64,000 nt of DNA from Shigella phage SFPB. The notes under the pieces are model-generated. The model saw only the letters and a program-made list of their open reading frames with translations. It made no database searches and had not been told where the DNA came from. The position numbers and the translations under genes were made by a program. The DNA lies in sequence record OQ031072, one strand, 5' to 3'. Numbering within the stretch: position 1 is the first letter of the stretch; each line of letters opens with the position of its first letter. Shown piece by piece: positions 55,255 through 55,683 of the stretch.

Positions 55255-55302
55255 AATTAAGGTGTGATATGAAAATATGTAGTACTTGCAGAATACCAAA
55301 AG

Positions 55303-55683
55303 ATGAAAGCTTATTCCATAAGAATAAGAGTAAAAAAGATGGTCTTCAAACACAATGTAAAAGAGTGTGCAAGACTCCGTGATGCAAAGAGTTATCAAGG
55401 TAATAAGAAAAGGAAAGAGGCTATTAAAAATGCTCGTGAAGATAAGCGAGATTACAATAGAAACTTGACTAGAAGATATAAGGCTTGGTGTAAGTGCAAG
55501 ATATGTGGTGAAAAAGAACCAGTTGCATTGGATTTACATCACACTGACCCTTATGAGAAAGACTCAAACCCAGCGTCACTTTATTCTTATTCCACAAAAA
55601 GGCTAAAAGCTGAAATTAGGAAGTGTATTGTTTTGTGTGCCAATTGCCACAGAAAAGTACATGCAGGTATCATAAAAATTTAA
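55303..55683 (+). CDS. HNH homing endonuclease (paralog of 54168..54572), frame-disrupted at 5' end
   Basis: C-terminal HNH core ALDLHH...CANCHRKVHAG; true N-terminus (MKICSTCRIPKDESLFHK...) in another frame from ATG 55269; extra A in TGTAAAAGAG versus paralog TGCAAAGAG. Confidence 0.65.
   Translation: MKAYSIRIRVKKMVFKHNVKECARLRDAKSYQGNKKRKEAIKNAREDKRDYNRNLTRRYKAWCKCKICGEKEPVALDLHHTDPYEKDSNPASLYSYSTKRLKAEIRKCIVLCANCHRKVHAGIIKI

Follow-up and report, generated by a model that had tools for sequence, protein, structure and literature searches.

How should we understand a gene that appears in two pieces in a deposited phage genome when a single surplus adenine accounts for the break: as a slip of the assembly, as a gene that has just been inactivated, or as a frameshift that the phage puts to use? 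The question is raised by the second of two HNH-motif open reading frames (ORFs) located in the tRNA gene array of Shigella phage SFPB. The window, by which we mean the whole stretch of DNA that was analysed, comprises 64,000 nucleotides of one strand of record OQ031072; all positions refer to it, and features are on the plus strand unless stated otherwise. Exact-sequence look-ups identified the genome as that of SFPB, a contig of 88,550 bp. This phage belongs to the genus Mooglevirus in the subfamily Ounavirinae, where it serves as exemplar for the ICTV species Mooglevirus SFPB, and its closest whole-genome relatives are the Shigella phages Sf13, Sf17 and Sf19, together with Citrobacter phage KMM4, at 95-97% identity. 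ARAGORN finds 25 tRNA genes within 52101-57863, and the two HNH-motif ORFs, which we term HNH-1 and HNH-2, lie among them.

One gene in two frames

As deposited, HNH-2 is spread over two overlapping ORFs. The first, at 55269..55382, encodes 37 residues (MKICSTCRIPKDESLFHKNKSKKDGLQTQCKRVCKTP) and stops at TGA 55380-55382; a Shine-Dalgarno-like AAGGTG, read from the sequence at 55259..55264, stands 4 nt before its ATG. The second, at 55303..55683, encodes 126 residues and carries the HNH motif. No comparable Shine-Dalgarno motif accompanies ATG 55303, and a further in-frame start, ATG 55339, is preceded at 8 nt by a weak AAGAG. Read from ATG 55269, frame 0 yields MKICSTCRIPKDESLFHKNKSKKDGLQTQCK and is then out of frame up to the TGA at 55380-55382. 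Its codons M1-K31 (55269..55361) carry C4, C7 and C30 of an invariant zinc-ribbon-like CxxC...CxxC module, the second pair of which is interrupted, between K31 and E32, by a run of four A at 55359..55362, one more than the AAA of every other copy. The C-terminal segment, E32-I137 and the stop codon (55363..55683), continues in the +1 frame with a helical linker and then the HNH, or beta-beta-alpha-Me, core (residues 76-131, 55495..55662), in which C76 and C79 are followed by H90 and H91, then by C123, N125, C126 and H127, and finally by H131.

The junction reads CAATGTAAAAGAGTGT, A4 run included, where its HNH-1 counterpart at 54244-54255 reads TGCAAAGAGTGT. Deletion of one A from the AAAA at 55359-55362 restores a protein of 137 amino acids (a CDS of 414 nt), and this repaired HNH-2 aligns with HNH-1 from end to end, with 51% identity over 136 aa and an E-value of 9e-44. 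Both the paralogy and the one-base offset are thus real, not a product of chance. An earlier note, made from the sequence alone, had proposed that the genes at 54168..54572 and 55303..55683 are paralogues, that the N-terminus of the second starts at ATG 55269 in another frame, as the two ORFs just described indeed have it, and that its junction holds one A more than that of the paralogue. All three proposals are borne out, the last also by the orthologues, which again have AAA. The comparison with the paralogue is valid, yet it is weaker than that with orthologues, to which we return below. The GenBank product of this locus, an 'endonuclease VII' of 114 aa (WBF69684.1, 55339..55683, found by exact-sequence look-up), is a truncated gene call due to the frameshift.

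The family to which HNH-2 belongs

Repaired HNH-2 belongs over residues 1-134 to PHROG 2255, 'HNH endonuclease' (E=1.8e-41), and HNH-1 matches the same family from its first residue (E=5e-44). An N-terminal Cys4 module followed by an HNH core is common to both proteins, and the frameshift is the sole difference in this respect: the full-length match, N-terminal module included, holds for repaired HNH-2 only, and the deposited sequence splits the module over two frames. The four cysteines of the module (C4, C7, C30 and C33, arranged as CxxC-x22-CxxC) are invariant across 31 family members, down to 39% identity. Equally invariant in the family alignment are C76, C79, C123 and C126, two CxxC pairs around the core, as in the zinc-containing subclass of HNH proteins, and the core itself has the conserved histidine (general base), the asparagine and the metal-binding histidine of the HNH / His-Me finger superfamily. 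The match to the Pfam HNH profile PF01844 is marginal: the 126-aa ORF, at 24.0 bits, lies above the cut-off of 21.4 and the repaired protein, at 19.5 bits, below it. A search of NCBIfam with HNH-2 gave no match. In the PDB the sole sequence match, a weak one, is to the HNH domain of LtrA. Among the closest known systems are the beta-beta-alpha-Me (His-Me finger) nucleases with structural zinc, namely Hpy99I, PacI, Gme HNH and GVE2 HNH; no biochemically characterised member of PHROG 2255 was met in the databases searched.

A database search returned at least 150 homologues of repaired HNH-2, the nearest of which are nearly all 137-143 aa long and aligned over 99-100% of the protein. Two are orthologues lodged in the same slot, between tRNA-Gly and tRNA-Thr, with a gene of 414 nt: BPS15Q2_18 of a Salmonella phage (YP_009324599.1, 99.3% protein identity) and ORF47 of Felix O1 (NP_944871.1, about 85%). 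With a query of 585-591 nt that includes the flanking tRNA genes, nucleotide identity comes to 98% for BPS15Q2 and 88% for Felix O1. These ORFs are unbroken, whereas that of SFPB is split by one surplus A. Six copies of HNH homing endonucleases were counted in the Felix O1 genome paper (PMC3185647). HNH-2 is a known type of element with annotated orthologues, and the name under which it entered GenBank is an annotation carry-over. Identity with T4 endonuclease VII was considered and rejected: no Pfam Endonuclease_7 match appears at E<=0.1, and the PHROG families named 'endonuclease VII' score 1e-9 to 1e-10 against 1e-41 for PHROG 2255.

A recent arrival in a tRNA spacer

The edges of the insertion site are sharp. 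On the left lies tRNA-Gly(tcc), at 55180..55254 (ARAGORN; 59.6 bits with Rfam), on the right tRNA-Thr(tgt), at 55685..55761 (ARAGORN and Rfam), and with the HNH-2 cassette, 55255..55684, the spacer is some 425 bp longer than an empty one. In Sf13, Sf19 and KMM4 that site is empty, tRNA-Gly being followed by just AATAA or AACAA and then by tRNA-Thr (...CCA-AATAA/AACAA-TGCT...). Among 253 related phage records only 14 hold the gene between these two tRNA genes, most relatives having the empty site.

Two contigs, L010 and L015, carry HNH-2 within another Mooglevirus background, and the comparison with them is telling. Over the 430-nt cassette there is no substitution at all, the surplus A being the only difference, and the following 342 nt diverge by 0.9%; the upstream 680 nt diverge by 11-12%, and beyond about 56.03 kb divergence is 5.8%. 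Such a tract of near-identity is the footprint expected from recent homing or recombination, with co-conversion of one flank. Sporadic presence at one exact site and a cassette far more similar than its flanks are the two marks of a mobile homing endonuclease gene, and both are found here. HNH-2 is a free-standing homing endonuclease gene, a mobile element, with cleavage of the empty site as its putative activity.

T-even phages carry free-standing homing endonucleases, Seg and Mob, which spread by 'intronless homing', and the tRNA region of phage T5 has HNH genes. Like these, HNH-2 is a stand-alone nuclease gene wedged amid conserved genes. As with the T-even free-standing enzymes, its presence is polymorphic in close relatives and the near-identity tract consists of the gene and some 340 nt of one flank; unlike the GIY-YIG Seg proteins, it belongs to a different nuclease family, and cleavage of its target site is presumed.

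Members of the HNH family adjoin tRNA genes in unrelated viruses as well: tRNA-Thr in Pseudomonas phage KIL3, tRNA-Leu in Salmonella phage FSL SP-107 and Pectobacterium phage Wc4, tRNA-Lys in Erwinia phage pEa_SNUABM_56, tRNA-Gly in cyanophage S-RIM50 and tRNA-Gln in Haloarcula virus HCTV-16. It may be that tRNA genes serve the family as targets for homing.

An adenine private to the SFPB record

The earlier note had suggested that orthologues be compared, and they speak with one voice. Fourteen other copies were read base by base (BPS15Q2, Felix O1, Ro111lw, one IMG/VR contig and ten metagenome or SRA loci), and 14/14 have AAA at the junction, so that the window carries exactly one extra base. 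All of them show TGYAAAGA (TGTAAAGAG or TGCAAAGAC), an intact CDS of 414 nt and the slot between tRNA-Gly and tRNA-Thr. The ten metagenome or SRA loci read TGTAAAGAGTG without exception (10/10); having been retrieved via the intact protein, they are unusable for a frequency of the frameshift. The phage records that hold the gene, 13-14 in number, all align with one base fewer than the window has. Four copies from independent ENA/Logan samples (ERZ28602286, ERR1578654, ERZ27229523 and SRR27009556; loci L010, L013, L015 and L018) are identical to the window gene minus one A over 414/414 nt.

Proteins tell the same story. The exact repaired HNH-2 protein is found on 21 contigs and the truncated 114-aa product in the SFPB record only; neither the 126-aa ORF nor the 37-aa peptide occurs in the protein collection searched. 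When the exact junction was looked for in IMG/VR, in its A3 and in its A4 form, the window-type sequence had no match, and a looser junction pattern found one contig there, with A3. The surplus A is private to the SFPB record and is not conserved, which argues against programmed slippage.

Homopolymer errors in the record

If the A is private, is the record to be trusted at sites of this kind? Several genes of the window suggest otherwise. The terminase large subunit gene (TerL, 58311..59911) has CC instead of CCC at about 59596, so that residues 1-437 are read in one frame and 414-533 in another, when all the relatives, with identical flanks, have an intact TerL of 533 aa; this break is almost certainly an assembly error. 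The prohead (S49) protease gene, 62231..63576, has AAA for AAAA at about 62398 and shifts frame after residue 55, a change private to the window among eight relatives. Compared with Sf13, two further genes are split into two frames: that of the primase/helicase (5802..7792, AAAAA to AAAA at about 7479, after residue 559 of 663) and that of the homologue of Sf13 gp95, a conserved protein of 286 aa (8265..9124, CCC to CC at about 8668). The deletions at 59596, 62398, 7479 and 8668 sit in otherwise identical 60-nt contexts. A plaque-forming phage cannot lack TerL, protease and primase/helicase together, hence these breaks must be errors of the record, and its homopolymer lengths are unreliable.

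The tRNA genes are affected too. One-base deletions at 53337, in tRNA-Lys(ttt), and at 57704, in tRNA-Ser(gct), set the window apart from all eight relatives compared; that at 56265, at the end of tRNA-Arg(acg), does so against 5/6 of the relatives covered, and that at 56510, in tRNA-Gln(ttg), against 4/7. Up to eight relatives with identical or near-identical flanks could be set beside the window at 59596, 62398, 57704 and 53337, and at each site the window alone deviates. Relative to their Sf19 counterparts, Rfam scores fall from 54.4 to 48.0 bits for tRNA-Lys and from 56.2 to 46.2 bits for tRNA-Gln(ttg), with truncated ends; the score of tRNA-Ser does not change.

There is a pattern in these losses. 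Six of the eight changes from C3/G3 to C2/G2 lie in TCCCT/AGGGA (3339, 8667, 21030, 38948, 53336 and 59595), against a base rate of 17.6% (P=6e-4), and of roughly 92 TCCCT sites about 6 have lost a base. The pattern points to a systematic artefact of base calling or consensus building, whatever the technology may have been. Over 5.6 kb, private 1-nt indels number 0 in the natural lineages Sf13, Sf19 and ERZ286, 2 in the window and 6 in KMM4. In all, seven certain errors in about 57 kb of constrained sequence make an error rate of about 0.12 per kb.

An independent assembly of SFPB was sought through exact matches to its portal, DNA polymerase, DUF2828 and DUF7217 proteins and to a 70-aa ORF, all of which were found on the SFPB contig only. 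The collections searched held no raw SFPB reads, and a literature search for the sequencing method gave nothing usable.

Other differences of this type may be mentioned here. The homologue of gp58, on the minus strand at 33184..33458, has A4 for A5 at about 33222, which places its last 12 codons out of frame relative to Sf13; this is either an error or real. KMM4 (Citrobacter phage BSwM KMM4, OP902293.1) is another error-prone public record: over the 19 kb compared it shows 13 private homopolymer deletions, which fall in runs of 3-6, and its annotation breaks TerL into three CDSs and the protease into two. Two A insertions are private to the window, at 48840 (A4 to A5, beside a terminator-like hairpin) and at 52320 (A6 to A7, in the spacer between tRNA-Glu and tRNA-Met). 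An A run followed by G, which these private insertions seemed to share as a diagnostic context, has a base rate of about 40% and is uninformative. Homopolymer differences at 54002 and 54016 were likewise considered as errors and discarded: common to the independent contigs L019 and L020, they are real.

Assembly error or recent null allele

We can therefore ask whether the surplus A is one more of these errors. The locus is an ordinary free-standing HNH homing-endonuclease gene for a protein of 137 aa, recently arrived in the tRNA-Gly/tRNA-Thr spacer of SFPB. That protein has three parts: a zinc-ribbon-like Cys4 module at the N-terminus, then a helical hairpin, and at the C-terminus a beta-beta-alpha-Me nuclease stabilised by zinc. 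On this reading, the surplus A at 55359-55362 would be a homopolymer-length error of the deposited assembly, the phage itself making a normal full-length enzyme. The identity of the gene, its mobility, the privacy of its extra A and the errors elsewhere in the record are shown by the comparisons above; that this base belongs with those errors is what we infer, and we give this reading, in which the split frame is not biological, a rough probability of 0.5.

The alternative that competes with it takes the extra A as real. A very recent +1 insertion would have made HNH-2 a pseudogene, as is expected in the degeneration phase of a selfish gene that has become fixed in a lineage, and the broken gene would give rise to a 37-aa peptide and to no more of the nuclease than an untargeted HNH fragment. 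We consider this plausible, at somewhat less than even odds. Its main argument is one of direction: all seven events that must be errors are deletions, whereas the change in HNH-2 is an insertion. The only other insertion-type private changes, at 48840 and 52320, are non-coding and may be natural, in which case they are no proof that errors of the insertion type occur. Moreover, HNH-2 is selfish and dispensable, most relatives doing without it and the sites of Sf13, Sf19 and KMM4 being empty, so that a real null allele would escape purging. Natural 1-nt indels are known in the lineage (54002 and 54016, common to L019 and L020, are examples), and other phages carry incomplete members of the family, less than 80% of the protein being covered in 46 of 222 records.

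What weighs on the other side is time. The near-identity tract, set in flanks that diverge by 6-12%, implies a very recent arrival of this copy, without a substitution separating it from four independent intact copies, and this leaves little time for a real mutation. An A3 run is, besides, a poor substrate for slippage compared with the gene's own A6 run and its four A5 runs. No other copy of this orthologue is frameshifted, though ten of the loci, having been retrieved via the intact protein, do not count towards that frequency, and the record of SFPB is demonstrably unreliable at such sites.

Rough figures may be put on both processes. At the error rate of the record, about 0.05 errors would be expected in a gene of 414 nt, and about 0.01 after a discount for direction; with a deletion-biased process, an insertion error here would thus be comparable to, or rarer than, a real frameshift. 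For the latter, about one substitution in the 755 nt of the transfer tract (window against L010) would correspond to some 0.3 substitutions in HNH-2 on the SFPB branch and, with an indel-to-substitution ratio assumed to be 0.05-0.15, to some 0.01-0.04 real frameshifts since the transfer. The true figure is probably lower, because real insertions are rarer than deletions and A3 slips poorly. An artefact and a real mutation would on this count be about even. The unreliability of the record at this class of site, the lack of other gene decay and a gene functional and mobile until very recently together give a slight edge to the artefact. Among the explanations that the earlier note had offered, a sequencing error, for which the errors of the record speak, and an inactivation, for which the deletions-only pattern and the dispensability of the gene speak, are both viable; regulation by slippage, the frameshift being absent from every other copy examined, is not supported. 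In either case the biological entity is an ordinary 137-aa enzyme or its freshly broken copy.

The import of this for biology is small: it is familiar that phage tRNA clusters harbour homing endonucleases, that these decay and that phage assemblies contain homopolymer errors. HNH-2 is split either by a fault of the assembly or by a trivial null mutation of recent date, and there is little likelihood of a regulated frameshift. The value lies in curation. The exemplar record of the species appears to hold single-base homopolymer errors in TerL, prohead protease, primase/helicase, gp95 and several tRNAs, and these sites, along with the 114-aa call that truncates a 137-aa HNH homing endonuclease, should be mended or marked by anyone who draws on the record to catalogue proteins or compare genomes.

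Readings in which the split gene still yields a nuclease

A real extra A might also leave a working enzyme behind. In one version the downstream ORF would be translated alone, from ATG 55339 (114 aa) or ATG 55303, into an HNH-only nuclease, a proposal consistent with the score of the 126-aa ORF above the Pfam HNH threshold (24.0 against 21.4 bits) and with the weak AAGAG before ATG 55339. Both starts, however, lie inside the upstream ORF and have no good ribosome-binding site. The invariance of C4, C7, C30 and C33 in 31 members and a PHROG 2255 match that begins at residue 1 make the N-terminal module look obligatory, and an HNH-only architecture is seen in no other member of the ortholog group, nearly all of them full-length. 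We regard this version as very improbable.

In the other version the extra A would be decoded by +1 slippage: the tRNA-Lys paired with AAA would re-pair with the overlapping AAA as the A site waits at AGA, so that a low level of wild-type 137-aa protein would be made and expression tuned down. The geometry is indeed present, since UGU AAA AGA GUG read as UGU AAA (A) GAG UGU restores ...QCKECARL... (site context CAAUGUAAAAGAGUG / CAAUGUAAAAGAGUGUGC). AGA is a rare arginine codon in the host, and in E. coli ribosomes shift into the +1 frame more readily at AGA/AGG codons that are hungry. Like programmed +1 sites, of the prfB type or at hungry AGA/AGG codons, the AAA_AGA of SFPB permits perfect re-pairing in the P site ahead of a host-rare codon. 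Unlike them, it occurs in no homologue, every other copy being in frame, and so lacks conservation, the main criterion for a programmed site; inspection by eye of the upstream CAAACACAATGT found no SD-like stimulator; and AGA, which makes up 27% of the arginine codons of the phage, is served by a phage-encoded tRNA-Arg(tct) at 53835..53911 (ARAGORN), so that the codon following the slippery AAA should not be hungry during infection. This tRNA matters for the slippage reading only: were that reading true, the endonuclease of SFPB would be translationally throttled and still mobile, with an output set by the supply of tRNA-Arg(UCU), the phage copy included. That a real extra A has created an accidentally shift-prone AAA_AGA, where occasional +1 slippage regenerates the exact wild-type endonuclease, is the least probable of the readings considered.

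No AAA_AGA dicodon occurs in ORFs that encode 150 aa or more; with the limit set at 100 aa there are 5, where 9.9 would be expected. Their avoidance was rejected as a signal of shift-proneness, AAA being generally avoided before codons that start with A.

HNH-1 and the tRNA array

The paralogue HNH-1 (SFPB_119, 54168..54572) is intact, with 134 aa, and is inserted between an uncalled tRNA-Trp(CCA) and tRNA-Ser(tga). This tRNA-Trp, at 54083..54150 directly 5' of HNH-1, was missed by ARAGORN; it scores 32.6 bits with Rfam and has a perfect 7-bp acceptor stem, the anticodon loop CTCCAAA and an encoded CCA end. At the same place Sf13 and KMM4, which are without HNH-1, have an unannotated and strongly divergent tRNA-Trp(CCA)-like allele. 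The version beside HNH-1 may be a cleavage-resistant variant of the target that travels with the endonuclease. The HNH-1 cassette, 53978..54605, taken with the tRNA-Trp and some 190 nt of upstream sequence, differs at only 2 positions from the ENA contigs L019 and L020, in flanks that diverge by 7-9%, so that HNH-1 looks to have been recently mobile too. Contigs with the exact HNH-1 protein are short and come from other backgrounds.

Elsewhere in the array, a 70-aa ORF at 56027..56239 (SFPB_121, a conserved homologue of Sf13 gp18 with 98.6% identity) overlaps the same-strand tRNA-Arg(acg), 56189..56265, by about 50 nt. At 52658..52738, where Sf13 and Sf19 have an annotated tRNA-Tyr between tRNA-Asn and tRNA-Asp, ARAGORN makes no call in the window and Rfam gives a sub-threshold 22.8 bits; this tRNA-Tyr is also absent from the annotation of KMM4. 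The SFPB portal protein (59924..61384) has 487 aa, one codon being absent in the alignment with the 488 aa of all relatives listed. Finally, an intergenic repeat of about 100 bp recurs at least five times between the small early genes at 34057..36644; every copy ends in GGAGAYTC-A5/6-TG, a ribosome-binding site with a start codon, and these repeats cross-match many intergenic regions of Sf13.
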